A stretch of DNA of 56,662 nucleotides, counting the filler, from Dugesia japonica (Eukaryota), in assembly GCA_001938525.1 (NCBI GenBank). It is 4 parts of 4 records of this genome, joined end to end, with 100 filler letters (N's around TTAATTAATTAA, not from the genome) between each part and the next. Parts side by side here need not be neighbours in the genome. Positions count along the whole stretch, not along the records: positions 1 to 12,185 come from MQRL01632059.1; 3 more parts are not named here. One strand, given 5' to 3'. A program made the translations under genes and the position numbers. Each line of letters opens with the position of its first letter. Position 1 is the stretch's first letter. The notes beneath the pieces were generated by a model. The model was not told where the DNA came from and searched no databases. It saw only the letters and a list, made by a program, of their open reading frames with translations. This document shows, piece by piece, positions 1 through 51,300 of this stretch.

Positions 1-31
1 ATAAAAAAATCATTTCTATGGTTTCTGTAAA

Positions 32-650
32 ATGTTACTACAAAACAACTCGGATTTTCAAATAGTAGGCCCCAGTGGAAGCGGCAAAACGTTATTTTTT
101 TGCAAATTATTACAAAAAAAGTAGTTTAGGACAAAGTCCAAACATATTTATTGGCACCGAGATTGTGGAGGTGAAGCTGGCTTGACTAATGGTGAATTTT
201 GCAAGTTGAGAAATATTACGATAATTAATGAAGTCGATGATGATTGGTTAAAGAGATTAAATACTGGTGATATTATTGTAATTGATGACTTGTTTCAAGA
301 GACAAAAATGCAGGCTGATTTTAATAATCTCTTTAAAAAATCTGCTCGTCATGGTAATGTAACTGTCATCTTCATCACCTAAAATCTTTTCCATCAAGGT
401 GGCATGCATCGTACACGTAATCTAAATGTTCATTATTTGGTTTTATTCAAGAATCCACGAGATCAAACTGTGGTTGATTATATTTCCCGTCAAGCATCTC
501 CAAAACATAAATGATTTTTATCTGATGCATTTCGTGATGTAACTACAAAACCACATGGATATTTATTTATTGATTTTATGCAACAATGTCTCGATGATGA
601 ACGAATTAAAACCGATATATTCAATTCGGAAGAAATAACAGTTTACAAAC
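32..650 (+). pseudogene. FtsK/A32-like genome packaging ATPase
   Basis: One frame with 3 stops: Walker A IVGPSGSGKT, Walker B IIVIDDL, SARHGNVTVIFIT*NLF, YLVLFKNPRD, KPHGYLFID. Confidence 0.92.
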
Positions 651-682
651 NNNNNNNNNNNNNNNNNNNNNNNNNNNNNNNN

Positions 683-1191
683 GATTAAACAAGTTCTTTA
701 CCAAACAAGGTAACAAAAAATGGATACATGTTTTACCAAAAATGATTTATGCATACAACCATTCTGAACATAGAAGTATTGGGGGAGGAAAAACACCAGT
801 TGATATTACAGATGATGATGATTTTAAACAGTATATCATCAATAAAAAGCAAAAACCAAAATATAAAATTGGACAACATGTACGGATTTCCCGAATTAGT
901 ACTACACCATTCATTGAAAACTTTGATAATAATTGTAGTGATGAAGTCTTTCAAATCTCGAAAATCAACACGAGACAGACCCAAGTCATGTATGTAATAC
1001 ATGACGAAGATGGTAATATTATTTAAGGCAAATTTTATGAGTAGAAGTTACAAGTGTTGCCGGGAAAACCAAGTATATATCGAATCAAATCCATACTCAA
1101 AACCAAAAGTCAAGTACAATATAAGCAATATCTGGTTGAATGGCATGGCTTTTTAAAGCCTACGTGGATTCAAACATCTCAAATCCAATAA
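683..1191 (+). pseudogene. Polinton retroviral-like integrase, C-terminal part with chromodomain
   Basis: YNHSEHRSIG..TP, KPKYKIGQHVRISR, II*GKFYE*KLQ, then YRIKSILKT...YLVEWHGF..PTWI. Its stop overlaps the penton ATG (TAATG at 1189-1193). Confidence 0.88.
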
Positions 1192-2538
1192 TGAGTTTTT
1201 ATATGGTTTTGCCAAGCAATAGTTGTCCAAGAACTCGGCCTAATAACAATACGAGCAATTATTTGGTCGACTATGATAATGCCATCAATTTAAAAGATGN
1301 NNNNNNNNNNNNNNNNNNNNNNNNNNNNNTTTTCAATTATTGTCCACAGACTATACGGAAAGGTTCAAAAATCGAATATAAAATAAGAGAAGTGATGGAA
1401 ATTGAAGATAAATTTTAATTAAGTATTGTAGATGGTAGTCTACAACTTAATAATACCTTCCCTATCAATAAATATAATTGGTATATATTTTCCAATGAAA
1501 AGAAAGTAATATTACAAACATATTGTCAAGTACAAATGGAGTTTAAATCGTTATCAGATGGAAAAAAAATTTGGATTCAATTTAATCAATACCAAAAACA
1601 AGAAGCCATTATTTTCAGTTATTGAATCTGATGAGCAGTATTCTGGAAAATATTCCATCAATATCTTTAAAATTAAAATTTAATACTATTGAGGAAGGAA
1701 AGGCTAAAATAAAAGAAATTGAAGAAAATGTAATTGTTGAGATTAAAAATGGAAAACCTTTTGTTTCTGGATAAAAAATAAAAAGAATTGCGAAATCAGT
1801 TTAAATGGTCAAAAGAAAATAATTATCAAATCTGATTGCAATATAGAATTGGAGTTTTATTCATTGTTTGATACTCGATTACTGGTGTTTCATTCGCGAA
1901 AGACGAAAAACAAACCTATGGATTCATTTATCGAATCAGATACTAAAATGTTGGATAATATCGCCAAAACTGATGTTAAATTAAAATTTACTGAAATCGA
2001 AACAAAAATAAACTATTTTGGATTTGAAAGTGATTTAATGGTTACGAATCTGGATAATCTGATTACATCATTTATAAAATGATGCCATAAAATATTTAAA
2101 GAATTTGTTATAGATTCAAAATTTGGATTGCTCATGTTTAAATTATTTGATAATGTTGAATATGTCTTTGTTGAGAGTCTTTCGCTAATACTCGATCTCC
2201 CTTCGACGAAATTCTACAGATCCACAAAACAAGTAAAGAGTTTGCATAAAATAGTATTCCATGGTGATATTAGACAACTATATATTTACTCATCAATAGT
2301 CGATCAGATTCTGGTTGGTGATGTACGCATGCCACTTTGGAGAAGTATATGGGTTGATAGTAATAAGCATTCATTTGATGATATTGTACATGTAAAACTT
2401 GCAAATTCAATGTATTTACTTGTATCATCATCTTCCATCAACAAAATTGACGTAAATATACGTGATGATGCAAAAAGATTGATTGATTTTCCATATGGAT
2501 CAAAAACAAGTTTAACTCTACATTTTCGACAAGTATAA
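1191..2538 (+). pseudogene. Minor capsid protein (penton, single jelly-roll) with enlarged insert
   Basis: N-terminus MSFYMVLPSNS..PNNNTSNY; C-terminus LYIYSSIVDQILVGDVRMPL..IDVNIRDD..LIDF..SLTLHFRQV*. Internal stops and frameshifts. Confidence 0.9.
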
Positions 2539-2570
2539 ACAATTTGATTACCACGCGATTCATTATTGAA

Positions 2571-2971
2571 ATGGATGATCAAGCTATTATCACAATGTCG
2601 TCCACAAATGGGGTAGAGACTTTCCATACTTTATCGGTAATCAACAACAGCAAGGCGGCGGAATTTGGCTGCATAAAATTGGACGTTTTGCAATTCCATT
2701 TTTGCAGACATTTGAACTTTCCATTGCAAAGTCAGTGGGGTGAGTAGCCCTAAAAACTGTTGATGGTGTTATAAGCAAGAGGCAGTCATTTAAGAAATCA
2801 ATCAAGAACCAAGCAATGAATATGTTGCCGGATGTGAACAAAAATGCACTTAATGCATTAAAGGAATTTGTTGATGGAGAGCATACCAGTGAAATACGTA
2901 AACGGAAAAATAAAATAACATCGACTATAAACAAAAGACGACGATTTGATGAAACCATCCTTGCAAAATAA
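2571..2971 (+). pseudogene. Small Gly-rich/amphipathic virion protein with basic tail (pX/core-like gene of Polintons)
   Basis: After a frameshift: FPYFIGNQQQQGGGIWLHKIGRFAIPFL..VG*VALKTV..FKKSIK..RKRK..KRRRFD. Sits between penton and hexon. Confidence 0.65.
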
Positions 2972-2973
2972 GC

Positions 2974-4076
2974 ATGTATGGCGGAAAAACTGAATTATCG
3001 CTTTTTTACCACAAAATATCGCAAGTTGTTGTTGAAAGCTTCACATTTGAAGAAATCTACCCAAAAGGTTCTATAACTGGGTAAGCTGGACAAAAAATTG
3101 AGTTCAATATTATTGGTTCAGATAGTAATTACTTGGATTTGAATGATACGTTGCTCATTATTAAAGCATGATGGAACGGACTTTGCATCAACTGATACTA
3201 CCAACATGATACAAAAAACACTTTTCTTGAAGCCATTGGTTATCATAAAGAAGATAACAAAAGAAAAGGTTGAATTTAAACATCTGCAAAGCTAACGCTC
3301 CGTGGTGCACTTAATCTGGATTGCTTTTATCCACCAAAGTATTTGTTGCCGGAAGTCAATGTGACAATTAAATTGACGAGAAATGTGAGTTCGGTAATTT
3401 ACAAATATACTAAAGACGCTACAGAAACAGTTGAGATGAATCCACAACCATACATTATAGAAGNAAAATTAGTAGTGCGACGAGTTTGAGTTGATCAGTC
3501 GGTTATGATTGGACATCGTCAAAGATTGGAACATCAAAATGCAATCTACCCTTTCCAGAAAACAAAAATCGTACATTTTACAATTCCGAAAAACTCGCAT
3601 GGGAAATATAAAGACAATCTCTTCTCTGATGAACGATTACCGCAATTTATTTTGATTGCTTTCCAATCGTCGAAACAAGCAAGTGGTGATTACTGTTCAT
3701 TTTGTTCGACATTCTCAAATTTCGGTGTAAATTCAATATGCTTGGCAAGAAACGTTGATTATCGAGAAACATATACTACTGAATTTGATACCGACTATAC
3801 CGAGGCATATTTGTAATTAATTATTCGTAATATGGGTCTGTTAAATGTAGATCGAAACAACGGTATTACAATGAAGGAATTTAAAGACTCGTGTACGTTT
3901 TTCACCTTTGTATTGGCACCGAACTTTGCAGTTGATCAACCGCAATTGCCAAAAACCGAAATCTCAAGTTGGATGTGCGATTTCATGAAGCCTTGATGGA
4001 ATCAGTGACAATGTATAAGTACGGAGTATTTGATTCGGAAATTCAAATCACCAAAAATGCGGTAGTAGTTGTATAA
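2974..4076 (+). pseudogene. Major capsid protein (hexon, double jelly-roll)
   Basis: MYGGKTELSLF..EEIYP..KIEFNIIGSDSNYLDLNDTLL; KYLLPEVNVTIKLTR; NAIYPF..DNLFSDERLPQFILIAF; NLKLDVRF..YGVFDSEIQIT. Stops, frameshifts and an apparent internal deletion. Confidence 0.9.
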
Positions 4077-4146
4077 ACAAAACATACATGTATGTGTGTA
4101 TTGTATAGCATGAAGTATGTATTGATTTTTTTATAAAGAGAATTTA

Positions 4147-4518
4147 TTGATTGCTAGTACTTTACAGATTGAAACAATATTGAAACGTGATTTGGACACC
4201 AGGCGATTCAAAGGAATGTATCCACTGGAACGATTACCGGGATTTTTACAAAACGGATCCTATGTAATTAATACACATACCTTGAATTTGGATGGTGCAC
4301 ATTGGATTGCCATTCACGTTAAACTAAATATTATTCGTGTATTTGATTCAATGGGCATGTTTTATCCACTATTGGTGTTAACAAAATTGGAGCNNNNNNN
4401 NNNNNNNNNNNNNNNNNNNNNNNNNNNNNNNNNNNNNNNNNNNNNNNNNNNNNNNNNNNNNNNNNNNNNNNNNNNNNNNNNNNNNNNNNNNNNNNNNNNN
4501 NNNNNNNNNNNNNNNNNN
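4147..4518 (+). pseudogene. Adenain-like cysteine maturation protease (C-terminus in N gap)
   Basis: FKGMYP..LP..YVINT..GAHWIAI..VFDSMG carries the catalytic His and Asp; the Cys region falls in Ns. Confidence 0.85.
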
Positions 4519-4527
4519 ATATTTAAA

Positions 4528-5205
4528 ATGCCTGTGTTTTTTATTTATTATGAAGCCTTTCAGGATAATAATGCCGACTATTTAATTAAAGTATTATGTA
4601 TAATGAGTGTGGATAATATTCTTCAACTGTTTTATTACATGTTTGCCATGACGGAATCAATAGGTAGTATGAGGAAATAATTATTATTCAATAATTTTGA
4701 GCCAATAGAATAGTTCATTCCGAATAAAGATTTTTAAGCTACTATTCAATTATCATTTNNNNNNNNNNNTTTAGAGTTGAAGTAGAAAAATAAATTATGT
4801 CTAAAAATATTAGTTCTGATTTGAATAATCAATTACCAATTGAAGATTTACCTAACAGGTAGTTTATCAAAATCTGATCAAACAACTAATGAGTACTTAC
4901 GGATCTGGCGTCATCATCTGAGTTGGATTGATGGAGATTTAAACTTTTATTCATCTAGAATAATGAATAACTTGAAAGCAATTCCATACGATGCGCTGTT
5001 TTATGTAAATGATCAGGTAAATGGAAAAAAATTAATACTCTTAAACACCTTTTCCCAAGTCTTTGAACTGTTAATTATAACTCAAATGAGCATCAATAGC
5101 TATGTATACCGAATAACATTTTCTGTCCATATTATAACCACGGATATTATTGTGCATATAAAAAATGTTTAAAGCTCTGTGTACATTACCTGTCATGTAA
5201 ATATA
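4528..5205 (+). pseudogene. Polinton accessory ORF, probable DEDD/RNase H-like exonuclease fold with C-terminal Cys/His motif, split by a ~195-nt insert
   Basis: FIYYEAFQ..YLIKVLCI / SLSKSDQTTNEYL..HHLSWIDG..FYVN..K..LKHLFP / CPYYNHGYYCAYKKC. Fold assignment is by motif resemblance only. Confidence 0.5.
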
Positions 5206-5334
5206 TATTTTTTAAAATTTCTTTTGTTGCTTTAAGTAATTAATAATAGTATTAATAATAATCATTATTATTATTTTATTTTTTTTTAAAATAATATTTG
5301 AGGCTCATTATTTTTTATGAAAAATTGTAAAAGT

Positions 5335-5797
5335 TAGGGTGTGAAAGTTCATGCAAAAGGTGTGCAATTTCACAGTTTACCTTAAAGTGTGAAAGATCAC
5401 ATCATAAATAAAACATTTTAATTATACAATTTATATATAAATGCTTAATGCCTTTAAAGTTTTTTACAAACTCATATTTAAAGTGTGATAATTCACATGC
5501 TAATAAAAAAAATTATTGTTTCATTGTTTACTTTTCGAACGTTTTAAACAAGTAATTAGGTGTGTAATATAAATGTAAAAGTCAATTGTTTAAAATTAAA
5601 GTGTGAAATTTTGACGCTAAAGGCTTCAATTTTCACACCTATTGTTGTTTACATTGTGAAGTATGAATTTTCACACCTAAAGGATAAAGTTCATTGTTTA
5701 CATTGATGTGTGAAAATTCACACCTATTGTTGTTTATATTATTAGGTGTGAAGTGATCTGTCAATCATCTGAGCCAGACCATGCGTAACCACCTACT
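5335..5797. repeat. Candidate Polinton right terminal inverted repeat region with reiterated GTGTGAA/TTCACAC and TGTTTAC motifs
   Basis: Follows the last gene; about ten GTGTG/CACAC motifs; ends CCACCTACT at 5797 (AGTAG.. on the minus strand, similar to Polinton AGT-type termini). The left TIR is not in the window. Confidence 0.5.
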
Positions 5798-5984
5798 CTA
5801 GATAATTCTTTGACTTTTTTAATCTTTGAACTTACCGGTGACAGAATTCAGTTTTCTATCTACCACCAAGTCCAGCAATTTTATAGACAGCATCATTTCT
5901 TAATTTTCTAACTTTATAAAATTTATTCATAATATAGTGCATTTTTTATATTTGTTCTAACGGATCAATTAAATTATTAAAACC

Positions 5985-6019
5985 GATTCCTGACGAAGAG
6001 AAAGTCGTAAATTAGAATT
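5985..6019 (+). ncRNA. Degenerate minimal hammerhead ribozyme (Penelope-type)
   Basis: GATTC CTGACGA A GAG AAA GTC GTAA AT TA GAATT. Confidence 0.5.
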
Positions 6020-6113
6020 ATTATCAAAAGCACACCAAAATAATTTTTTTCAATTAAATTAAGTTCTATAAATTCCCAATGCTCTACCTGAAATTTATTT
6101 GTAGACATTAATT

Positions 6114-6543
6114 ATGATAACTAATATTATATAAAGAGGTAGAGTGTTGCAAGAAGTAACAAAGAAAATGAACTTCCTTACAGATAAATCTATCAATTCA
6201 ACGTCAGATGGGACAAGTATACAATTAAATTCTTCAGAACCGGAAAATGAAGAATAATAGGATACAATCATAACCCTTATAACCGCAAGATTTGAACGAC
6301 TTTNNNNNNNNNNNNNNNNNNNNNNNNNNNNNNNNNNNNNNNNTAGATGAGAGTTCCAATTAATTTGTATAAATTAGTAAAAATTGTCAACTGTCAGTTT
6401 AAACCAGAGTTATTTTCTGCATTACGGCTTGTAAAATATGATTTTATGTAATACTTGAACTTCAAAATTTAAATTTTCAAGACGACTTGGACAACATAAC
6501 ATCATATTTATCCAATCTTATTGAAAACATTGATAACATTTAA
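6114..6543 (+). pseudogene. Intronless TATA-binding-protein-like gene (decayed)
   Basis: MITNII*RG.. / YTIKFFRTGK*RIIG (TBP repeat 1, cf. LIFSSGKMVCTG); MRVPINLYKLV..CQFKPELFSALRL (cf. FPIRLEGL..YEPELFPGLIYR); VILELQ..*. Confidence 0.7.
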
Positions 6544-6724
6544 AACAATAATATAACAAATTAAATAAAACAATTTTACTTGATATTGTTAAAATGGCAA
6601 AATAATGATGAAATAATATGAAATTATTCCATTCNNNNNATATTTAATTAATATGATTAAACACAAATCAATTTTAAAACGCATTTTTTAAAACATTAAT
6701 TATAAGTTAATTAATTCTAAACTG

Positions 6725-7165
6725 ATCAATTATTAAACGATAAATTTTAAATCCTATGAATTTTAAGCTGTTAAACTTTGATGCTCATGAATTTTAAGCT
6801 GATAAAATCTTATTCTTATTAATTATAAGTCGCTAAAATTTGATTCAAATTAATTTCAAACTGATAAATTTTAATTTTTATTAATTTTAAACTGTTAAAT
6901 TTTGATTCTAATTAAACTTAAACTGATGAATTCTTAAAATCTTATGAATTTTTAGGTTTATGGTGAGAGTTGTATTTTCAATGAGGAGTTCTATACTTTC
7001 TATGCAGTTGTCTTTAATTTTCTGTGATGACTCATGTATTTACCATGATGATACCTGTACATTCTATGATAAATTGTCTATGGTTTTTAATGAAAATATA
7101 ATTTTCCATGACAAAGTGATTATTTTCCATGTCGAAATGTTTATTTTCAATAATGAATCATATGT
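6725..7165. repeat. Degenerate minisatellites: ~31-bp unit (6725-6950), then ~21-bp unit (6955-7165)
   Basis: Units such as ATGAATTTTAAGCTGATAAAATCTTATTCTT and CATGACAAAGTGATTATTTTC. Confidence 0.8.
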
Positions 7166-10100
7166 TTGACATGTTGACTTAGAAATTTTATGTGTTGTTT
7201 TAGAATTTTGTGTGATGAAATGTAATTTTAGAGTGTTGACTTAGAAATTTCAATGTGATAAACTATATTTTTAGTGTGATGGATTATAAGTGTATATGTT
7301 TGTTTGAATTTTTATCTGCTGACTTATTATTATTATCTATGTAATCTATGAATGTTACTGAATACTTCTGTGTAATTTATAAAACATTTGAATAGAAATA
7401 TACAATGTTTGAAATGTTTTATTGACTTATATGTAATTTTTAATAATTTTAATGACTTTCATACGAGGGCTGTTTGAAAAGCTTTGAAAATGAAAAGAAA
7501 AAAACAACATTAATTGTTTAAAAATCAAATTAATTTTCTACAAAATCTCCTTTTAGCTGAACACATTTAGTCCAACGTTTTTCTAGCAACTGAATACATT
7601 GCTTGTAATGACTTTCACCAAGGCTTTTANNNNNNNNNNNNNNNNNNNNNNNNNNNNNNNNNNNNNNNNNNNNNNNNNNNNNNNNNNNNNNNNNNNNNNN
7701 NNNNNNNNNNNNNNNNNNNNNNNNNNNNNNNNNNNNNNNNNTGAATAGGGTGGATGGTCAAGCAACTCGTACTTAAATTCATTGAATTTTGTCATGGTCA
7801 AAGTGCTTTGTGGTCAGGTGCATTGTCTTGCACAAAAAAGATTTTTTTTCTTTTGAAAACCTGGTCGTTTCCCATGAATTATGTCATCCAATTGGTCCAA
7901 TAGGTTTACATAATACTGGGAGTTGATTGTTTTTCCTTTTCTAAGGTAGTTTAATAAAGAAATTCCTTTTGCATCCCAAAATACAGATGCCAAAACCTTC
8001 CCTGCTGATAAAACCATCTTGGCCGTCTTTGGTGCATTCAAACAAGCTTCCATCTACTATTTGGATTGTGCTTTTGTCTCTGGTGCGTCCAGGTTTTATC
8101 CATAGTTACAAGACGACTCATAAAATCTGTTTTATAATGATTAAATCTATCCAGACATGATAGAGGAAATTGCATTTTAATGCGCTTTTCATCGATTGTT
8201 AGCAGATGCAGCCCCTATCTTGCACAAATCATTTTCATCTTCAAATCTTCATGCAAAATATGCCAAACTATTTCATCTAAAATGCCTGTGGCAGAAGCTA
8301 TTTATCTAACCTTTATTCGTCGATTATCCAAAATAATATCATCTATTTCATGAATGATTTGTGGTGTTGTCGCGCTTTTTGGGCGTCCACTGCGTAGATC
8401 ATTTTCAATCATCGTATGGCTACGTCGAAACTTCAAAGCCCATCTGTGAACTGTTGAAAACGAAGGAGCACCTTCTTTTAATACTTTGACCATCTTTGTA
8501 TGGATTTCCGTTGTTGATAATCCTTCCAGGACAAAGAATTTTATGATCGTTATATATTTAATTTTTTCCATTTTAAAATTAATGNTGGTAAGTCAAATTA
8601 AAATAAGTAATTTAAACAAATTACTTTACATATGGGAATGCTATTATAAATAAGTTAGTATTAAAGATGAAATATTAAAACGGTTTATAAATTTTTTGTT
8701 ATTTTGTTAAATTAATCCTGTCGTTTTCAAAACTTTTCAAACCACCCAAGTATAACTTTAGCATGATGAATTATAATTTTTATGTACTGGTTTCGAAATT
8801 TTATGTGACTGCTTAGAATTATACTGTAATCNNNNNNNNNNNNNNNNNNNNNNNNNNNNNNNNNNNNNNNNNNNNNNNNNNNNNNNNNNNNNNNNNNNNN
8901 NNNNNNNNNNNNTTTTTGGTCTTCTATGTGTATTAAGTTTAATACGGTTATTAATTTAATAAGTTTATTGGTTAAAAATGTTTAATAAATATATCAAATT
9001 TAATAGGTTTATTAGTTTAACAAGCGTTTTGAGTTTATTGTTTTTTATTTCTTGGGGACATCTAATCTTAATGTTAATATTGTCCATGGGGAACATTTAA
9101 TATCATAGGAAAAATAAAAGTTTGTGTATATAATTTTAAGGATTTTCTATGGTTTTTTAAGTGTGGTCAGGATTTGAATTCGGGTTAGGATTATGGTTTT
9201 CTAAGTTTTTATAGAATTAAATAAAAATTTCTAGGATTTTAAAAAATTTTCCAAAACTTTTATAGAATTGTTTAGTGTTAAAGTTATTGTTATGGTTAAN
9301 GTTGCCGTGGCATTTACATTAAATAAAATAAATTTTTAAACCAAAACATAAATTCTAAGATCAACTTTCTAAGTCAACCCACATAAATTACAGTCTGTCC
9401 CATTAAAATTATATTCAATCACATAAAATTCCATCTCAACTCATAAAAAAATATTCTTTAAGTTAACATTATAGTTCGTCAGGCTAAATTGTAAACCATT
9501 TATAAAACTTAATAGTCTGCACATAGAAATTTAATGTCAACACGTTAACAGTACATTTCATCACAAAAAAGTCAGCACGAAACCTTTAAGCTCATAATCC
9601 TTCAACTCTAAAAATATAAAGAAGTAATAAAACATTTTCAAAAATTTTATAGAAGTCATCATATTTTATCATTAATTACATAAAAGTAATAATAATTTTC
9701 AAAAATTACACAGAAGTCCATAAACCTTCTAAGTCAGCACATGAAAATTCTAGCAAACATGTTAAACTTATAATTCAATACACTAAAACTATATTCTGTT
9801 ACAATAAAATTCTAATCCATCACATTGAGTTGTAACACATGTCTCTAAAATTACAATCCATTACACAAAATAGTAACACATTATACTTGATTTATAATTC
9901 ATCACACAAAACTTTCATTCCATCCCAGTAATATTAACACTTACATGTACAACCATTGAGCCAACATATGAATTATAATTCATCACGCTAAAATTACATA
10001 GACGTTATTAAAAATGATCATAAATTACAGAAGGCAATAAAATATTTCAAACATTACATACTTCTATTAAAGATTTTCATATGTTACAAAGAAGTATTCA

Positions 10101-10690
10101 ATACCTTTCAAACATTACAAAGAAGACAATAAAATTTCTAAGTCAACATATATAAAACTTCTAACCAACAAGTTAAACTTATAATCTATCACACTAAAAA
10201 TATATTTCATCACATTGAAATTTTTAAGTCATCACTTTAAAACTATAATCCGTACACTAAAATTATATTTCCTCACATAAAATTCTAAGTCAGCTCCTAA
10301 AATTTCTAAACCATCACACAAAATTACCACTCTAAATGTAAAATCTTTAAGTCAACAAATACAATTTATAATCCATCACAGTAAAATTACATTTCATCAT
10401 AGAATAATAGTATTCATTCACACAAAATTCCAACTCTACTAATGAAAATGAATGATCAATACGTTAAAATTATAATGCATCTCACGAAAGGCTAATCTCG
10501 TCCAAATAAAATTGACACTCAACAAGCAAAATTCTAAGTCAACACATACAATATCTAAGCCAACACATAAAAATTATAACACTGAAATTACAATCCATAA
10601 CACATAATTGTAATACATTTCACTAAAATTATATTCTGTTTCACAAAGGTTTCATTCAATCACAGTAAAATTCTAAGTAGTCACATAAAT
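6960..10690. repeat. Large fold-back structure with internally repetitive (~19-20 bp unit) inverted arms
   Basis: The reverse complement of 7170-7460 plus 8753-8830 aligns colinearly with ~9930-10330. The arms are built from AAATTCTAAGTCAACAC-like units. Confidence 0.8.
7464..8750 (-). mobile_element. Full-length decayed mariner transposon
   Basis: TA flanks; imperfect TIRs CGAGGGCTGTTTGAAAAG / CTTTTCAAACCACCCAAG; ~1.29 kb; transposase pieces RSGRPK, GKVLASVFWDAKG, LLDHPPYS. Confidence 0.95.
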
Positions 10691-11619
10691 AGTTTTAATT
10701 ATAAAATACGTGCCTGGAAAAAATAATAGAAAACATAATACTTTCTACCATGATGTTGTGGAGAAATATAGTATTATTTATTACATGATTAAATATTAAA
10801 TATGTCCTGCATGCACCACTATAGGATTAGGAACATACCAAGATTTTTATAGGATGTATGGACATATAGATTTATTTACAAAAAATAAAAATAAAATTTA
10901 TTAATTGAAATAAAAAAGAAAAATGACATGTATGCTCAACCCTTTTAGACATTTAAATCTGTGGTGATAGATGATAGTGACGAGGAAATTAATAAGATGG
11001 AACCAGAGGTAATTTTTATTGAAGAGGAAATCCAACCATCAGAACTAGAGAATATTCAGCCATAAGAACCAATATATGGTCGACAAGAGGATTGGATAAT
11101 ATAGTTATAATTTCTGAATGGAATGGAAATGAAATAAACGATAAAGATGAAGTTTTACAACAATGTTTAGAAGAAGAAGCACTGGTTNCATTGTTCAATC
11201 AGTTATTGTATCTGATTTATATAAATGTCATAAAATTCTTAAGTTAGATGTACCACGTTTCAATATGAGGGAAATAGTTATTCCAGATACATTGATACAA
11301 AACATTTTAAGATAATATTAGAAATAAAAAATTTAAAAATCCAGTTTNNNNNNNNNNNNNNNNNNNNNNNNNNNNNNNNNNNNNNNNNNNNNNNNNNNNN
11401 NNNATCTAGCTGTCTCACTTAGTAATAAGTTTATGAAACTTATATACATTAAGTTCATAAACTTAATATGCTCATAATTATGTACCTAAAATTTAATTAT
11501 TGTGTTTGAATATATTTAAACATTTTAAATTTAAAACAATATTTATAAATCATTTAAATTGGCTTGATAGATTTTTAAAGTTGTTTTCTGTTTTATTGAA
11601 GTATATTTAAGTTTTAAAT

Positions 11620-20830: not shown

Positions 20831-21021
20831 TATAAGTAATAGGATTTTTACTTTTAAAATTCAGGGGCCTACCCTAAAAAATAAAATGTAAAATGTAAAA
20901 TGTAAAATGTTACATGAAAATATAAAATGTTACATGGTTAAAATAGCTATTATAATTTAAGAGGAATATATAAAATTAAAGAGGAAAAAAACATCACACG
21001 ATTAAATTATTCCTTTATAAA

Positions 21022-21635
21022 ATGAGTACTCAAATACACAAATGCAATAACTGTAATAAAGAATTTAAAAATCTAGCAGGTTTAAAAAGTCATGTTAATT
21101 CTAAAACATGTCAAAAGTCAGATTTAACATTTCCATGTTTAAAATGTAACAAATCATTTAAATCGCAAAATAGTTTACAAAAACATTTAAATGCATCAAG
21201 TTGTGGAAATTATGATAAGGTTCCATTATTCTGTGAAATTTGTAACAAACATTTTAAAAAATTAAATCAGGCAAGAGAACATTTTAATTCTGATCAACAT
21301 AAAGAAAAAGCAAAAAATGTTTTATTTGATCAATTACCAGGTGAAGAGGCAATTGATTTTGACCCAGAAATTAGAGATACTTTTAGAAAGTATAAAGACT
21401 ATGAAATTACATTTTTTAAAGAAAGTTCAATAGAAATGAAATATAATGTTGAAAANNNNNNNNNNNNNNNNNNNNNNNNNNNNAACTTATTTTATAATAG
21501 AGTTAAAGAAATATTTATTACTTATTTAGAATATGGTAGAAATATTATTGTAAACATGGGCGTTAAATGTAGATATACAAACACAATAAATAATCAATTT
21601 GTAGAAAGAGATTTTTCATCTTATTCTAAAAATAA
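21022..21635 (+). CDS. Intact intronless zinc-finger ORF (two C2HC and one C2H2 finger), truncated by contig end; possibly the N-terminus of a Polinton-type DNA polymerase gene
   Basis: CNNCNKEF..LKSH..C, CLKCNKSF..LQKH..C, CEICNKHF..EHFNSDQH; no stops outside the N gaps. Confidence 0.7.
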
Positions 21636-21735
21636 NNNNNNNNNNNNNNNNNNNNNNNNNNNNNNNNNNNNNNNNNNNNTTAATTAATTAANNNNNNNNN
21701 NNNNNNNNNNNNNNNNNNNNNNNNNNNNNNNNNNN
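21636..21735. other. Artificial contig linker
   Basis: N44-TTAATTAATTAA-N44. Confidence 0.95.
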
Positions 21736-23799: not shown

Positions 23800-25051
23800 T
23801 TTGTATTCTAAACATTTATATTTAAAACACTTAAAATTAAACATTTGAAATTAAAGTTTTACACTAAACATTTACAGTTAAAACTTTTGCAATTAAATAT
23901 TTCATTTTGAAAATCTATACAATTAAATTTTACATTTCTCAACTTATGCTAATGAAAAATATACCTAATAAAACAAATCTCAATATTTCAAAACCGAGGT
24001 AAGCACCTTAAGACCAAAGAGAAAATTTGATTGGAACACGAAATAGTAATATTAATCAATTTAAGTTAAGTTGCATAATAAAACTATTTAGTAATTTTCC
24101 GACAAAAAAATTAAAATTTCCCAGGCCTTGTTTAAAACAATAAAATTTAAAATTAAATTTCTATTGATTTAATAATATAATGTTCTGAATTTCATTGATA
24201 TTTCATTAAAATTGAATGGATTAAATATAAATTTTCTGATTGACAAATTATTTACACTGGCATTATTTACATTGCTTATTCACATGGTGAATTTCAATAG
24301 AAAACAAGACAAAACTCATTTGAACATAAATGACTTAGCATTCAGTTATAATTTTCTTTTGCTAACAAATTCAATAAGAATTTTACTATTTAAAATATTC
24401 TAGTGTATTGAAAATATTAACCAAATCATAATTATTAGATTTGGTAGTCGGCATTTCAATTATCTTTAAACTTATTAACATGTTTACTTTTATTTTCAAT
24501 TTTTTTTCAAACTTTATCGGGGATAAAACAGCTGCTGTGAAATATTTTGATATCGATAATGTCAATGAAATATTTTAAAGAAATATTATTATCATCTCAT
24601 ATGCAGATTTCTCTTTCATTATTTGATTAGAGATTTATTTATCGTTTAACTTTGACCACATGAAACTTTCCTTTGATGGGCTTAGTTTTATCTAAATATT
24701 TTTCTTCCTTTTCGCAAAATGGTTGAATATTTTTTACAAAACCATAATATAATAAATTAAAATATTATAAACAAAAAATTTAATATTTTTTTAATTTTTA
24801 TTTCAATTCAATATACAATGAAATTTTTACCGATTTTTTTGCTTTATTTTATTTTAGATAAAGTTTCTAATTATTCATTAAATCAGGTTTAGATTTCTGA
24901 TATTTCTTTTTCGAAATTGTCATTTTAATGACAGATTTAAAATTCATTAAAAGAAAAAATATTATTAAAAATTTTTCAAGAATATTTACATATAAAATAT
25001 GGTTTTATTGTTTTTTAAATAATGTTTTAACACCATCAAATTTTATTTCAG

Positions 25052-25560
25052 TCCACAGTCAATCAACCTTCCTCCAAACTTCCAAAAACGTCTCAATTAA
25101 CATTTGAAATATCACTAAATTCCAAACGAAAAGAAAATCAACAACTTGGTCTTAATATTCACTATCGAAATGAAAAAGACAATCCATCACTTGGTACAGG
25201 AATATATATTCACTCCATTCTTATTAATAGTCTTGCTGCACAGCAAGGAGGATTGCAAGTTAATGATAAATTGATTGGAGTAAATGGAAACAGCCTTTCA
25301 GAGATAACTGTTGAAGAAACAATTAATTTTCTTAAAACTGCTATGCAAAACAATTCGGTTCTCGCTATTACAGTCATGAGAGAATCATCCTATGAGGAAT
25401 TTTCAGATGTTACAGACAACAATCATATCAGATCTATATCTAATTTGGCAAACACTGAAACTGCTATAAAGTCTGATTTGTCTAAATGTATTCTACCAAA
25501 CAAATTAATAATGGAAAGTAAACCAAGAAAATCTAAACAAAAACATTCATCAAATCATAA
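25052..25560 (+). CDS. par-3: par-3 exon encoding the PDZ3 domain
   Basis: TTTCAG acceptor, GT donor (phase 2). LTFEISLN..LGLNI..GIYIHSIL..AAQQGGLQVNDKLIGVNGNSL resembles Par-3 PDZ3. Confidence 0.85.
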
Positions 25561-25897
25561 GTAGGAATTAATAATTAATCTAATTAAACTTTTATTGGTT
25601 TTCTACTAGAAGAATATATAGATCACATAAAATTAGGCAATCAAATATATCTAGAAATTTTGTTAAATAATAAATTTAATTTAATTTAATTGAAATCTAA
25701 AATTTAGGGATGCATTTATTAATAAGCTTATTAATTAATTAATTCTTAATAATTATCATTATTCTCCAATAAGCTTAATAATTGACCCACCCACGTATTT
25801 TACTTCTAATACCCTAATGATTTCTTAATATTAATAAGCAAAATTAATAATAAAAATATTAATTAAAGCTGAAGAATAATCAATCAATAAGAATAAA

Positions 25898-44377: not shown

Positions 44378-45094
44378 GTAGCTTTAAGATCAGGGCTAGA
44401 AATAGCAAAGTATATCAGCAGAGATGGTGTTAAAACTGATTTGTCTAAAATAGAAGCAATAAGAACATTAAGCAGGCCTAACTACATGAAGAAGTTGCAA
44501 AGCTTCTAAGAAATTTGTAATTACTATAGAAAGTTTATAGAAAACTACGCTAAAGAATCAAGGATCTTAGATCAAGATATTGCAGTTGGGTAACGGACCA
44601 AACAACAAGAAGTTAGAATGGACAGATGAAATAAATGATACTTTTGAAGGCCTGAAGATAACCCTAATGACTGCGCTCATATTGTGTTTTCCAGACATAA
44701 ACAATGAATTTATATTAGATACAGATACCAGTTTCGATACGATTGGAGCAGCATGATCACAGAGAGATGAAGAAGGAAGAGAAAAAGTTGTTGCCTATGG
44801 TGTTACATCACACTCAATGGTGGGTCATGAAAAGGGATATTGCATTACACGAAAGGAATTATTGGCTGTTTATTATTTCTGTATGCATTTCAAACATTAC
44901 GTGTACGGTAGAAGATTTAGTCTTAGAACAGATCACAAAGCTCTAACCTTCATGATGACAATGAAGAAAGAAATCATGTCACAATTCCAAACATGGATTA
45001 ATTATCTGAGTAGTTTAGACATTGTTTTGGAATATAGAAAAGGAATTCAACAATAGTATTGCAGATATGTTATCAAGACAAAGATGTGTACAGT

Positions 45095-48000
45095 ATCAAA
45101 TATATTTTTTAAAAATATCGAGTTTCCTTTTTAAAATATTTTATATATCATAATTTCATAAAACATTTGTTATAATTTTATAATTTTACATAATATAAAA
45201 TATCGATTTTACTTTTAAAGTATTTTATATATCATAATTTCATAAAACATTTTTTATAATTTTATAATTTTACATAAAATATAATATCTATTTTGATTTT
45301 AAAATATTTTAATTTCATAAAATAATTTTTCATAATTTTAAAAATTTATCTTCACTTTTTATAATAATATTTAAAAGTTTCAGAAATAAATTTTAAAATA
45401 ATATATATGTATATAAATTAAAAAATCTCAGACATTTGAAATCCATGAATCGACCATACATCCCCCCTTTTTAAAATGTTTTTTATTTTTTGCACATTTC
45501 TTTTGATCGTCTTGCCTTCTGAATTCTTCATGAATCTGTTTTATCACCTCGTATAGACCTGTGTATTTTTTTTGTCTTTGATTTGCTTTCTGTCTTGATT
45601 AGGACCTCGTCTCTAACTTGAAAATGTCTCTTTGTTGGTGTCAAGTCTTCAGCTTCTTCATTCTTTTCTCAATTATTGAACCATCTTTATGTATCTTCTT
45701 ACCGAATATCACTTCTGCCTGACTTATTTCCGAAGTCTTCAGGCTTGTTGCATTTAGGGTAAATTCGATTTCTGATATTAACTCTGCCCAATTTTTATTC
45801 TTTTTATCTTTTAATGTTGCGTTGATGTAATCTATGATCGTCCTGAATTGACGTTCTACTATTTCGTTTGAATTTTGATGATATGGACTTGAAAATTAAA
45901 TCGTTATATTCATTGAATTTGTCATCTCTTTGAAGTCTTTCGATTCGATCAAGACATAATCTAACGTCGTTCCTTTCTTTTTTCCAAACACATATTAACG
46001 GAGTGTTCCATTGCAAATTACACTTTCTAATAATGCTATTGTCAAAAAAAATTCTTGATAGCTTCATCGATCTTATTTTCTAAATGCATTGGTTGTCTCC
46101 ATGGTTTTGAATTTATTGGTTCTCTATTTGTGATTATTTGATGTTCTTCAATTGTTGTTCTACCGATATTCCAGTTGTCTGCCATGAATATTCCTTTATG
46201 AATCATTATAACTTTCTCTAAATTCTCATTTGACTTGTTAATCAATATTTTTATTGCTCTTAGTACTCTCTCTTCATCCGTTGTATTACGTCCATACTTT
46301 GATTCTATAATACAAAGATACATTTCATTATCCTCATATTTAGTTTCTCTCAGCAGTTGGAATCCAAACTGTTTCTGTATTTCTATTCCTCCAATTAGAT
46401 TTGGATGTATCTCTATCACCACAATTTAACTGTTTTGCTTTTATTCTCGAATTTAACTTCTACCTTTATCGTACCGACGATTTCAAGTGGACTATTATTG
46501 GCACATCTTAAATTGTCTTCACTTTTTAATATATTGACTTCTCTCAATCTTTTCAATATTCTCAAACTCATCACATTAACTCTTGTTCCAGTGTCTAACA
46601 AGCAACCAACTTTTACACCTTGTATTTCAACCGTTATACTTGGTCTACCTTGCATCTTGTCATAACTTATCTCTTNTCGCTTTATCTCTTTTATCGTCTG
46701 AATTTCACTGTCATCTTCTCCATTTATATCATTAATAATCTTTGATTGGCTACTAATCAATTCTTTCTTTACAAACTTATAAAATTTTTCTTTTACATCA
46801 TTGTAATCATCTAATCGTTTATCTTCGTTTCTTTTATTTATCTAATTATTTATACTACATTTACTATAATTAACAATACTGCGATTTTTTGGGATACTTA
46901 ATTCAACGCTCCGACAGTCTTGACTTCGGTCAGAGCTTGGCCATTTGAGTATTCATCTTGATAATTATTTGACCTTTCATTACATGCACAATCTTTCCCA
47001 TTTTCTTCAATTGAATTAACGTGACTTCCATTCATCTTTGTATAATTATTCGTATTATTTGAATAATATCTTTGTTTACCATTTCCGAATTCTTTTCGGG
47101 CCTGTTCACTTTTGTTTTGATAACTAAACTGTCTGTTCATATTTGTTAAGCAGTCCTTTGCGTAATGGCCTTTCTTGTTGCATCTTGAGCAACTAACTTT
47201 GGTACAGTCTCTTCTCAAATGTTTTTCGGATCCACAAGCATATCACTTCTTTTTTCTTTCTTGACAATTTCTGTTTACATGACCTATTTTGTTACAGGTT
47301 CAGCACGTGATTAATCATCTTTCGCTTTTTCTGTTCTTTTGTATTCCTTCATTACGATTCGTGTTGAAATTTCTTTGTTCTGNACTTCTGCAAACAGCAT
47401 CTCTGTAGTTACGAACTACATTTATTTCTTCAGTTTTTACTTCTTCTTTTTTATCTTCCCACTTCTTTATTGCTTTAAATACATCTGCTACTTTTTCTAT
47501 TTTTCCTGATTTGACTTTATTTTTAATCTTTCTGTCATTGCAACTATTCATTATTAGCTTTTTTGTTAAGTCATCTTTGTTCCATTTATGAGCTATTAAC
47601 TTCTCTACCACTTCTTCTATCTTTTTCTTATAGATACTCACATGCTCTATATTCCTTCGATAATTTAGAACTTTCTCCATATCTTTAAGCATTGTAGATG
47701 GTCTAAAGAAATACTTTCTTCAAATTCTAATGCTTCGTCTTCATTTTCATAGATTTTACTCAGTTCTCTATCTTTGAAAGCAAGTACAAACAAACTTATA
47801 TGTCCTTTCTTTGTTCCGGCAATATCAAATAATTTTGTTGTCTTCAAAATAAATATTTCGACATCATCGCCCATTTTGAAAATTCCAAAGTGCATTGCTT
47901 CTTTTAGCAAATCCAATGATGCGTCGGTCGTCATATTAGTTAAATTCAAAATCTCACAACTCTCCATAAAGTTTTATTGATTATTACAAGTTTTTTAAAT

Positions 48001-48345: not shown

Positions 48346-51300
48346 ATGCAGAAGTTGAGAAAGTGTACGAGTATATGAGAAACAAATATATTGCAAAGAA
48401 TTTGTGAATCCAAATACAGAAGATAGTTGATAGTTGTGAAATTTGTTAGAAGACCAAAGTAGTGTTAAGTAGTAGTAAAGAGAAGACAAAGAAATAAGAA
48501 GCTACTAATTTGTTTGAAGTTATAATTACAGATATATGTGGGCCAATCCGAGAAACAAGAGGACAGAAAAATATATTCTTGGAATAATAGACCAGTAAAG
48601 TAAATATCTAGTTCTTATAGCAAGGCTAAAAAACATCATCCCCTTTGTTGTCGTTTTCTCTCTCAGAATTATTGTCATTATTCTCTACATAATTAAGAAT
48701 TCGGTAGTTTAGGTTAATTAGGTCCATCGTCATCGTCTGTTTTATCGTGTCTATTTATTGTAGGTTTAACAGTTTCAACAACATCAGATATTGTATTTGG
48801 TTGGCTATCTCCAACGACTAAGATTTCTCCATGTTCAATTTCTTTAATGAGATTAAACCTCCCAAATTTTCCTGGTGTATCAATTTGTATTAATTCAATC
48901 ACTTTCAATTGAGATGGCCTCACTCTAGCAGCATTTGTCAAAATTGAAAAATCTAACTCTGTTTTGTCTTTTTCGGTTAATGTGATTGGAGTATCTACAA
49001 CCATTTATTCAGATAATGTAATTTTAACTTTTTCTGTTTCTGTTTTCTTTTGTTGTTTACCAAATACACTAAAAACTACAGTTTCAACTTTCCCCTCTTT
49101 TTCTCCTTTTCAGTTTGAATTAGTTCTGGATAAGCAAATGTTGATGGTTTTTGGATTTTATTTCTAATTTTGGCATCATCAATTCTTTCTTAAGAACAAT
49201 AACAGAAGTGACTGTGAATGCTAAACTAATAAAATTGGCCAAAAGATACCAAAACCAATAGTTTTGGAAGATTAATAAACTTCTGCTTATTCAACTGTAT
49301 AAACNNNNNNNNNNNNNNNNNNNNNNNNNNNNNNNNNNNNNNNNNNNNNNNNNNNNNNNNNNNNNNNNNNNNNNNNNNNNNNNNNNNNNNNNNNNNNNNN
49401 NNNNNNNNNTCGATGATCTCGGCTTGCTCATCGGCTCCAAAAATGTATCTTCTTCAGCCATCAAATATGGCCATAAACCGATTTCTTTTTGTCTCTTCGC
49501 ATCTCTTCTTCAATGAAAGTCACTCTTTATGTTAGTTGAACTCGGAAATTTGGATGGTGGGGTAAGTAATAGAGCTTGTTTGCCTGCATTCTTTCTATTT
49601 AACAGCGGAGGCTGGTAAATTTCTATTGAATGTACATCTGGCAAGGGCTCACCACACTTTTCTTCAATTTTTGATTTCCTATTAACAATTGCCTAATCAT
49701 ATTTTGAAAGTTCCGCATGATTGCTTCGTCATCGTCTCGTTTGTCTTTGAATTTCTGTATTTCACTTTCCAATTATCTTTGCTTTCAGCTAACTCTTTGA
49801 CCTGCTCAAAGTTCATTTGATGGCTCACTAGCCTCACTCAATTACTTTCTTTTAGGGCCTTCTCTAACACTCACACTTTTCCTTTGTTCCACTTTATCTC
49901 GGTCAACATCTCATTAACTTCTTTCCTATGCGTTCTGTTTTTACTCGCACTTTATCTGCATCTCTATCAACTTTTGGGACTGCTCTGCACTTCTCTTTCT
50001 CCAATAAATCAATTTTTCATTTACATTTACTCATCTTTCCCGCTTTTTTTTCTCTTTTACCAGCAGTTCTTTATTTTCAACCTCTAACAAGTCTATTTAA
50101 TGATTCATACGTCTTATTGTGCCTTTCTTGTTTATTAGAAAATTTTCCAACTTCTCTACTTCTCGTCTATTATATGCTAATTCTGAATTCTGATTTTCAT
50201 TTCGTCTCTTATTTAATGGACTTTTGGTGAACATTTCTAGAATTAAGAATAATTTAATAATAGTAAAATAATAATAGTGTAAACTGTTTTAACAGAGACG
50301 CGGGCGTGTTGGTCGATCGTTCTAAAATGCCCGCAGTAAAAGCCCGGATAGAGCGAATACGCGATATTGGGGAACGTCGAAGTAATCGTTTACGGCATGC
50401 CCCTCCACAGAAGTTAGCAACCCGATTTACGTATGGGTCACCACCAGTTCCGCTCGAGGTAAGGGCAGATGTAAATAACCTAATATAAAACTTCCGAAAT
50501 CTTACCAATTCGTAAAATGTGGAGAATATTGACCCTGTGCCTATCCACGCGAATATTGAATCCTCCGACATTAAAGAAAATCAGTGACCATTAATTAGTG
50601 TTTCATTCTTTTTGGTGTTTTTATTAATAAAATAAGTGTATCTGGATTTGAGTCTTAAAACACTCTTACTGTTTATATTTTGTCTCCCCTTTTTGTTTTT
50701 GATCTAAGAATGGAGTATATACCAAACCAGTTACTCCTGATTTTGCATTTGTTGCCATCTAATTAATTTTTCTAAAATCAAAATTAATTAGTAATTAATT
50801 CTAGTGCATTCCTCACTCTACCGTTCAGTCGCGCCCACGAAAAATGTCCGAGAAGATAGTGAGAACATAGATATGTCCTGGAACCTTTATAAGTTTGCAA
50901 AACGGAACTGGTAGGTCAAAACAGTCGCCGCAAACCCCAAGGTAAAGCGTTATCCAAACAAATTCCGTAGTTACCGAATAGAAGGGGATGCCTCCCATGC
51001 TCAAGAGCGTATTTGGAAACGCCAGGTTGAGTCATTTGCAGATATTATTCGGTCCCTCCATGACCGTGAGAATAAACTGGTATCTGATCTGCTGGAAATA
51101 CGGAAGCATGTTCCCCTGGAGGCTTTAATGGTGGATAAATCTCCCCAAACTCGAAATTAAATATTTTAATGTTTTGCTTTAAATACATCTTACTATAAAT
51201 ACTTCGATATCTTGATTGTTTCATCTTGTTATGTAAATTCCTCATCTCTTTAATTTTAGTGCCACGAATTCAACTACCAACACGTCTCCGCCGATGTAAT

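Follow-up and report, generated by a model that had tools for sequence, protein, structure and literature searches.

The window, i.e. the whole analysed stretch of 56,662 nucleotides of Dugesia japonica DNA (GCA_001938525.1), contains a dead copy of a compact gene related to the one encoding TATA-binding protein (TBP). As far as gene content and gene order indicate, this gene is a regular member of one Polinton (Maverick, adintovirus) lineage, and the lineage is widespread. Packaging, virion and adjacent genes of these elements tend to be preceded by a box, YATAAACR, and we consider it fairly probable (approximately 0.65) that the mini-TBP is the element's own late-gene factor: it would be expressed early by the host, bind the box, dock host TFIIB and bring about the start of RNA polymerase II (Pol II) on packaging and virion genes, being free of the N-lobe regulators.

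The window gene occupies approximately positions 6111-6543 of the plus strand and is intronless and decayed, as the sequence-only reading had described it. Both motifs quoted there are present, FFRTGK*RIIG and PINLYKL..FKPELFSALRL sharing one frame and the gene start lying in another, and open relatives align with the window copy over three frame segments, 6111-6191, 6194-6448 and 6448-6519, at E=3e-21 for the best. The main frame, with X at stops, matches the Pfam TBP profile PF00352 at E=0.005 and 17.1 bits, under the cut-off of 22.9 bits, and open relatives of 149-156 aa are over it (E=1e-12 to 1e-19, 48-70 bits). Stops interrupt the gene several times, its frame changes at least twice, and in comparison with its kin some 27-30 bases are missing near 6448; a 40-base run of N is found at 6304-6343. 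As the closest scored copies are only 74-84% identical to it in DNA, the window copy is old and dead, and such a fragment is itself capable of none of the functions proposed here. The features of the window that bear on the analysis are listed in Table 1.

Table 1. Positions of TBP-related, Polinton-related and repeat features along the window.
Feature	Position	Strand	Remarks
Separate broken Polinton copy, same TBP-bearing lineage	14..5195	+	
ATPase	14-649	+	copy at 14-5195
rve integrase	685-1185	+	copy at 14-5195
Conserved gene c6	1188-2535	+	copy at 14-5195
Gene c10	2612-2944	+	copy at 14-5195
Putative major capsid	2974-4073	+	by size, position and a relative's weak Capsid_N match (E=0.007)
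Protease	about 4126-4389	+	copy at 14-5195
Gene c4	4861-5195	+	copy at 14-5195
ATAAAC boxes	2535, 2927, 4073	+	just before c10, putative capsid and protease, respectively
5' stub of Polinton A32-like packaging ATPase	5844..5923	-	head-to-head with the TBP gene; tblastn E=2e-5 vs L121 ATPase; DNA match to L027, L030
Divergent intergenic region between ATPase and TBP	5924..6113	.	in relatives, ATAAAC on the ATPase strand
Broken compact (~150 aa) Polinton TBP-like gene	6114..6543	+	profile and frame-piece matches; tree placement
High-copy minisatellite repeat pieces, inverted arrangement	6547..10689	.	separate from the TBP system
Mariner-type insertion	about 7461-8753		HTH_48 match at 8302-8589
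Likely decayed 5' part of Polinton pPolB	10690..11340	+	homologues at pPolB 5' regions

The gene had been placed outside the Polinton, and this has to be revised. Because it stands head-to-head with the 5' stub of a packaging ATPase, it should be a part of a second, broken Polinton copy, which faces the copy at 14-5195, and its membership in a Polinton is almost certain. Hence the proposal of a virus-like mobile element carrying its own TATA-binding factor stands, and the suggestion that this element was something other than a Polinton falls, given the ATPase stub and the occurrence of the relatives in Polintons. Part of the segment 5850-5984 is also matched by 27 of 39 related contigs; the box before the stub is not intact (site near 5940-5955). 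We also considered that the copy at 14-5195 might end with this gene, in the order protease, c4, TBP seen in L066, L078 and L081; this is disfavoured by the opposed ATPase stub directly upstream, as in the kin.

The window gene belongs to a large family. The PF00352 search of the own genome yielded 1511 candidates, of which 150 were scored, all over the cut-off; the at least 150 matches mostly belong to the Polinton family of ~150 aa. Host-type TBPs accounted for ten rows on six contigs (L001-L007); the host has several divergent TBP paralogues, some of them intronless (L003, L004), and several TFIIB/BRF-like genes (L250-L258). For 71 non-host-type TBP loci we surveyed the neighbourhood: a recognised neighbour gene was present in 28 of 31 loci and a core Polinton gene in 16 of 31 (L008-L038), with the respective fractions of 32/40 and 19/40 in L260-L299. 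In all ten of the first long loci that hold both genes TBP is head-to-head with the ATPase, and in the window's subfamily this arrangement was observed in 15 of 24 loci, the other nine being without ATPase within the retrieved sequence. In a second own-genome subfamily TBP is surrounded by the unknown genes c24, c26 and c16, and its tie to core Polinton genes relies on few loci (L012, L018, L028, L264).

The profiles recovered from TBP-bearing loci were rve integrase (PF00665, L027 and L050), packaging ATPase (PF04665, over the cut-off in L081), protein-primed polymerase B, pPolB (PF03175, L096 and L106), and adenain-type protease (PF00770, L081, E=1e-7); pPolB adjoins TBP in L023 and L148. 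Of the neighbours to be looked for at intact copies, pPolB was found, and the capsid is putative, being a conserved gene of 410-430 aa before the protease, a relative of which has a weak Capsid_N match (E=0.007). Some loci are organized differently: at L148:672-2920 the TBP-like gene is head-to-head with pPolB rather than the ATPase, a third arrangement; two TBP-like copies lie close together at L281:542-1532, L282:81-917 and L284:877-3585; and at L020:1477-9990 a reversed TBP/c16/c26/c24 block is situated between pieces of a TBP-less Polinton lineage, probably by nesting.

Outside this genome, a single open copy used as a protein query retrieved 115 proteins among 126 candidates, and an alignment of 107 rows retrieved 2998 among 4940, of which some will be cellular TBPs. 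The metagenome contigs yielded 187 confirmed stretches, and 80 of these were retained. In viral contigs the single-copy query found no relative and the alignment query found one locus, L039, with an ordinary two-lobed TBP; the ATPase and capsid alignments gave no match there, and no TBP-less control came from outside the own genome. The 80 metagenome loci and L039 make up 81 outside loci, mostly on short contigs, which contain ATPase (28), c4 (24), PLA2X (17), integrase (15), putative capsid (11), pPolB (9) and protease (8); the usual order is TBP followed by ATPase on one strand (25 of 28). ORFs with KilA-N/DUF3627, RING finger, dual-specificity phosphatase, LRR and E2 ubiquitin-conjugating domains were also seen in or beside the TBP-bearing metagenome Polintons L049, L060, L065, L083, L089, L098 and L106.

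The predicted structure of a natural open copy (L024, 147 aa; pLDDT 94.3, pTM 0.82) agrees with the TBP fold anticipated for the family: every one of its best Foldseek matches in PDB is to a TBP chain (E between 3e-9 and 4e-6, TM by query near 0.7), the matches to viral TBPs in BFVD being weaker (E=4e-8 and up). The model is without the second helix of the N-lobe, as no helix of at least four residues occurs between the strands 45-51 and 65-77. This compact family is under purifying selection, the median dN/dS being 0.21 for 7 own-genome and 0.29 for 106 metagenome pairs, which are not independent, with all values below 1 (only dS of 0.05-1.5 counted). Its median length is 153 aa (107 sequences); to our knowledge, it is the smallest two-lobed TBP known.

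In the same 107 sequences, the C-lobe glutamates that contact TFIIB are kept (E96 in 99%, E98 in 100%), and so are three of the four intercalating phenylalanine sites (F41, F100 and F116, each 100%); the first N-lobe site has no conserved phenylalanine. Of the central asparagines, N4 is retained in 96% and the second site is serine in 98%. N6, R47, M49, T73, R104, C112 and N114 are found at 90-100%, unlike the host paralogues, and S71 is also fixed or nearly fixed, the host paralogues differing. In the alignment R104, C112 and N114 occupy the three positions at which the altered-specificity yeast mutant TBPm3 departs from wild type, which we take to be I194, V203 and L205 in yeast numbering. 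The available text of PMC1636458 lists I194, V203 and L205 as the sites changed in TBPm3 and says of cellular TBP that the P101 site restricts position 1 to T; that of PMC7221094 assigns the TFIIB contact to two C-lobe glutamates and contacts with TFIIA, TAF1, Brf, NC2 and Mot1 to the N-lobe.

We counted words in the 60 bases before the first ATG of the recurring genes of L040-L119, near-duplicates being removed. After an initial inspection of the sequences nine gene classes (packaging, virion or adjacent) were chosen, in which ATAAAC was the top 6-mer, present in 81 of 124 upstreams compared to 8.3 in shuffled ones; on the reverse strand it occurred in none of the 124. Most occurrences (56 of 88) are located 30-44 bases before the ATG, and the base before the box is usually T (58) or C (26) and the one after it A (68) or G (15), which gives YATAAACR. 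The fractions by class were 22/26 for ATPase, 6/11 for putative capsid, 11/15 for PLA2X, 10/17 for c6, 5/8 for c9, 9/10 for c13, 17/27 for c4, 0/4 for protease and 1/6 for c10, and outside the nine classes 3/12 for integrase, 1/9 for the zinc-finger gene, 1/5 for pPolB and 3/18 for c3; some of the start codons behind the low counts may be mis-picked. Both TBP clades have the box (30/48 and 41/56), and one or more boxes were present in 39 of 48 loci. The own genome showed the same tendency, with the box before 19 of 22 ATPase genes (2.0 expected) and 11 of 13 in a second locus set, and, in 100-base windows, before 6 of 7 putative capsid and 14 of 18 c9 genes.

The TBP genes themselves rarely have the box (2/59; 2.1 expected). 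Instead, 27 of 59 have a canonical TATA (10.5 expected), often 28-30 bases before TCA[TC][TA]; in the window's own subfamily no clear canonical TATA was seen within 100 bases of the TBP start. Before the nine classes, TATAAA[AT] occurred in 10 of 124 upstreams (9.3 expected) and TATAAAG in none; a TATAAG box was found in 1 of 124 metagenome and 0 of 35 own-genome upstreams. CATAAAC is present in 26 of 124 upstreams although the family keeps P101, and in L026 of the own genome, which has T rather than M at position 49, the box is still present. We rejected the idea that the hexamer derives from a poly(A) signal (AATAAA 16/124 vs 17.8, AATAAAC 1/124; box before own-genome ATPase genes without a co-oriented upstream gene). 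A forkhead site, which we take ATAAACA to resemble, was rejected as well, GTAAACA occurring in 2 of 124 upstreams (1.8 expected) and the reverse orientation being absent.

As a control, 40 loci on 30 own-genome contigs were picked by a match to PF21738 (capsid) or PF03175 (pPolB); these contigs represent mostly another Polinton lineage. No TBP-like match was found in any of the 40 loci, several of which span polymerase to capsid (Pfam was run on 31 of their proteins). The box frequency before the genes of this lineage was at the background level (7/167 upstreams; 9.4 in shuffled ones), and de novo counting of 6-mers gave no dominant word. Similarly, PLA2X is preceded by the box in 11 of 15 cases with TBP vs 0 of 15 in a PLA2X/integrase cluster without it. 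The absence of the box from the TBP-less lineage lends support to a functional tie between the gene and the box; since the comparison relies on one TBP-less lineage, shared ancestry without a functional tie might also account for it. No viral TFIIB was recovered, as PF00382 had no match among the element proteins scanned, and genome-wide it gave 11 matches vs 1511 TBP candidates. As many element genes are without a Pfam match, a divergent viral TFIIB or some other partner is possible.

TBP and TFIIB form a DNA-dependent pair, and we know of no Polinton that encodes an RNA polymerase. In the proposed scheme, host factors would transcribe the TBP gene early, judging by the canonical TATA of many copies, which is followed about 29 bases downstream by TCA[TC][TA]. 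The mini-TBP would then read the YATAAACR box through its altered DNA face and dock host TFIIB via the acidic stirrup, as suggested by the retention of this stirrup and by the fact that no viral TFIIB was found, and it is predicted to recruit Pol II in this way. The loss of the N-lobe helix may free the protein from control by TFIIA, TAF1 and factors of the Mot1/BTAF1 type, and Pol II would start on packaging and virion genes after the mini-TBP has bound. To the stricter version, in which one protein is sufficient for the late switch, being a TBP stripped of host regulatory contacts, re-specified to YATAAACR and plugged into host TFIIB and Pol II, we give even odds.

If true, the TBP and its promoter would be a pair that is orthogonal by nature, and a staged, virus-like expression programme of these elements in animals would be strongly supported. 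For the timing of Polinton genes and the making of Polinton particles in animals, a private TBP with a matching box would offer a concrete early-to-late mechanism; the box could serve as a sequence mark for late genes, including the unnamed ones, and the protein as a natural altered-specificity TBP for the study of TATA recognition.

Two other explanations accept the Polinton origin. Host TBP or TFIID could read the box as a weak TATA, the mini-TBP acting as a decoy that binds TFIIB or host promoters and damps host transcription. The TFIIB glutamates are the best-kept surface of the protein, and one of the four phenylalanines and one of the two asparagines are lost, both in agreement with a decoy; moreover, host TBP may bind a C-containing site, as a wild-type plant TBP was crystallised on a C(-25) TATA variant according to the title of entry 1qn3. 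However, canonical words are not enriched before the nine classes, the new DNA-face residues are nearly invariant rather than degenerate, and the TBP-less lineage is without the box; the word with C is constant among elements even though their TBPs match the query at 33-52% only, and C at this position is disfavoured in the TBPm3 and TFIIIB selections described in the available part of PMC1636458. We therefore regard the decoy as unlikely. Somewhat less likely still is that another element or host factor reads the box, the mini-TBP being a co-factor in a larger complex comparable to the six-protein herpesvirus late complex. A partner could supply the missing N-lobe helix, the conserved unknown genes c3, c4 and c21 and a C2H2 zinc-finger gene travel near TBP, and ATAAACA resembles a forkhead site. 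Against this, only c4 of the four was seen in both TBP clades, and its model is exonuclease-like, under the naming bar; GTAAACA is not enriched and the reverse orientation is absent, and the spacing of the box fits a core promoter.

The remaining explanations would separate the gene from Polintons. The sequence-only reading had joined it with the minisatellites, the fold-back and the unknown ORFs at 10690-11325 into an element of a different kind, and some 900 bases do separate the gene from the last one of the 14-5195 copy, with minisatellite pieces 2.6-4.2 kb from TBP in L025 and L027. In addition to the opposed ATPase stub and the relatives in Polintons, the behaviour of the repeats elsewhere argues against such an element, which is very improbable: their copies extend past both window junctions, mostly without Polinton genes, a TBP or Polinton gene being near the 6540-7000 repeat in none of 19 other loci within the retrieved flanks, and, among 29 loci with the 10000-10700 repeat, 3 containing pPolB and 1 an ATPase. 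The minisatellites form a repeat of their own, outside the TBP system. The segment 10690-11340 is likely a 5' fragment of the polymerase, judging by its homologues: in 9 of 14 loci they coincide with the 5' part of pPolB or adjoin it, two of these nine appearing to be a single contig in duplicate. Finally, an origin from host TBP or TRF2, as a retrocopy or a decayed paralogue, for which the intronless host paralogues could be a precedent, has a negligible probability, and here the initial view was right. In a tree of 39 rows (5 host TBPs, L039 and 33 element rows, with 27 of 69 open metagenome copies picked by hand), the five host TBPs and L039 split from the element rows with support of 100/99 and a branch of 1.97, and the window copy joins L121 among the Polinton TBPs at 99/89; its end branch is long because a part of its row is out of frame, so its exact place is unsure. 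The family is thus multi-copy, separate from host TBP/TRF2 in the tree, and recurrently accompanied by Polinton genes.

Compared to known systems, the mini-TBP shares with cellular TBPs (eukaryotic TBP/TRF and archaeal TBP; PF00352) the two-lobed saddle, the acidic C-lobe stirrup, three of the four phenylalanines and the first asparagine. It differs in being about 30 residues shorter, in having no N-terminal extension and, in the model, no second N-lobe helix, in the lack of conservation of the first phenylalanine, the replacement of the second asparagine by serine and the new fixed polar residues of the DNA face, and in residing on a mobile element. The vTBPs of beta- and gamma-herpesviruses (KSHV ORF24 and kin; TATT late box) likewise have a more polar DNA face and are paired with a variant TATA before late genes, as far as the available text of PMC12529657 goes; according to it, ORF24 is large, is one of six members of a complex, contacts Pol II directly by its N-terminal domain and is without the TFIIB glutamates. 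Unlike ORF24, UL87 and BcRF1, the mini-TBP is a bare core of 150 aa that keeps these glutamates. With the TBPs of large dsDNA viruses, poxviruses included, it shares an eroded regulatory surface of the N-lobe, and in the available part of PMC7221094 the first glutamate site is kept in about 40% of those proteins, nearly all of which are accompanied by a viral TFIIB; by contrast, Glu occupies both sites in 99-100% of the Polinton family, and the scanned element proteins included no TFIIB. Thus, relative to the herpesvirus (large vTBP, no TFIIB contact) and giant virus (own TFIIB) solutions, this Polinton lineage would appear to have kept the contact with host TFIIB.

In gene content (pPolB, rve integrase, packaging ATPase, adenain-type protease, PLA2X, putative capsid) the elements resemble the animal Polintons/Mavericks and adintoviruses in the available text of Starrett et al. 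2021 (PMC8502044). Neither that text nor the preprint 10.1101/697771 describes a transcription factor or promoter for animal adintoviruses; the figures and supplementary maps may annotate the gene. A bare 'TBP' label occurs in one figure legend of PMC8502044, on MELD viruses, and PMC12220804 has the relevant terms only in its references. Viral TBPs are already known, and the legend label was the only mention found in the publications searched.

The copy at 14-5195 has no TBP position on its contig, because the contig starts at the ATPase of this copy. A fourth plus-strand ATAAAC, at 2008, falls inside c6. The model of c4 (window 4861-5195; L081:5843-6352) resembles folds of DEDD-type 3'-5' exonucleases, under the naming bar. 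RNA reads of four runs with the same species label were compared with window positions 1-6634; since they are mostly 85-95% alike to the window, they come from related copies, and related copies of the element at 14-5195 are transcribed at low depth. The depth over 6217-6634 was below 7, the signal at 5995-6216 comes from reads that match a short repeat in part, and the reads on 1-6634 revealed no transcription starts. Three runs of one study contain a GT..AG joint at 4662-4858, with 195 bases skipped just before c4, which may reflect splicing of a Polinton transcript.

Positions 5201-5780, between the two Polinton copies, form a short region of repeats in which GTGTGAAA/TTTCACAC words abound, with little match in the retrieved loci, and a tandem unit near 5708-5752 is seen in the RNA reads. 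Further along the window, an ORF with C2H2 fingers (20980-21687) has a start resembling the pPolB N-terminus of the TBP-less lineage (cf. L249) and is perhaps a further Polinton fragment. We also observed a host PDZ exon at 25031-25564, a decayed Ty3/Gypsy element at 44757-47973, and the C-terminal exon of RPN2 at 48714-49004.
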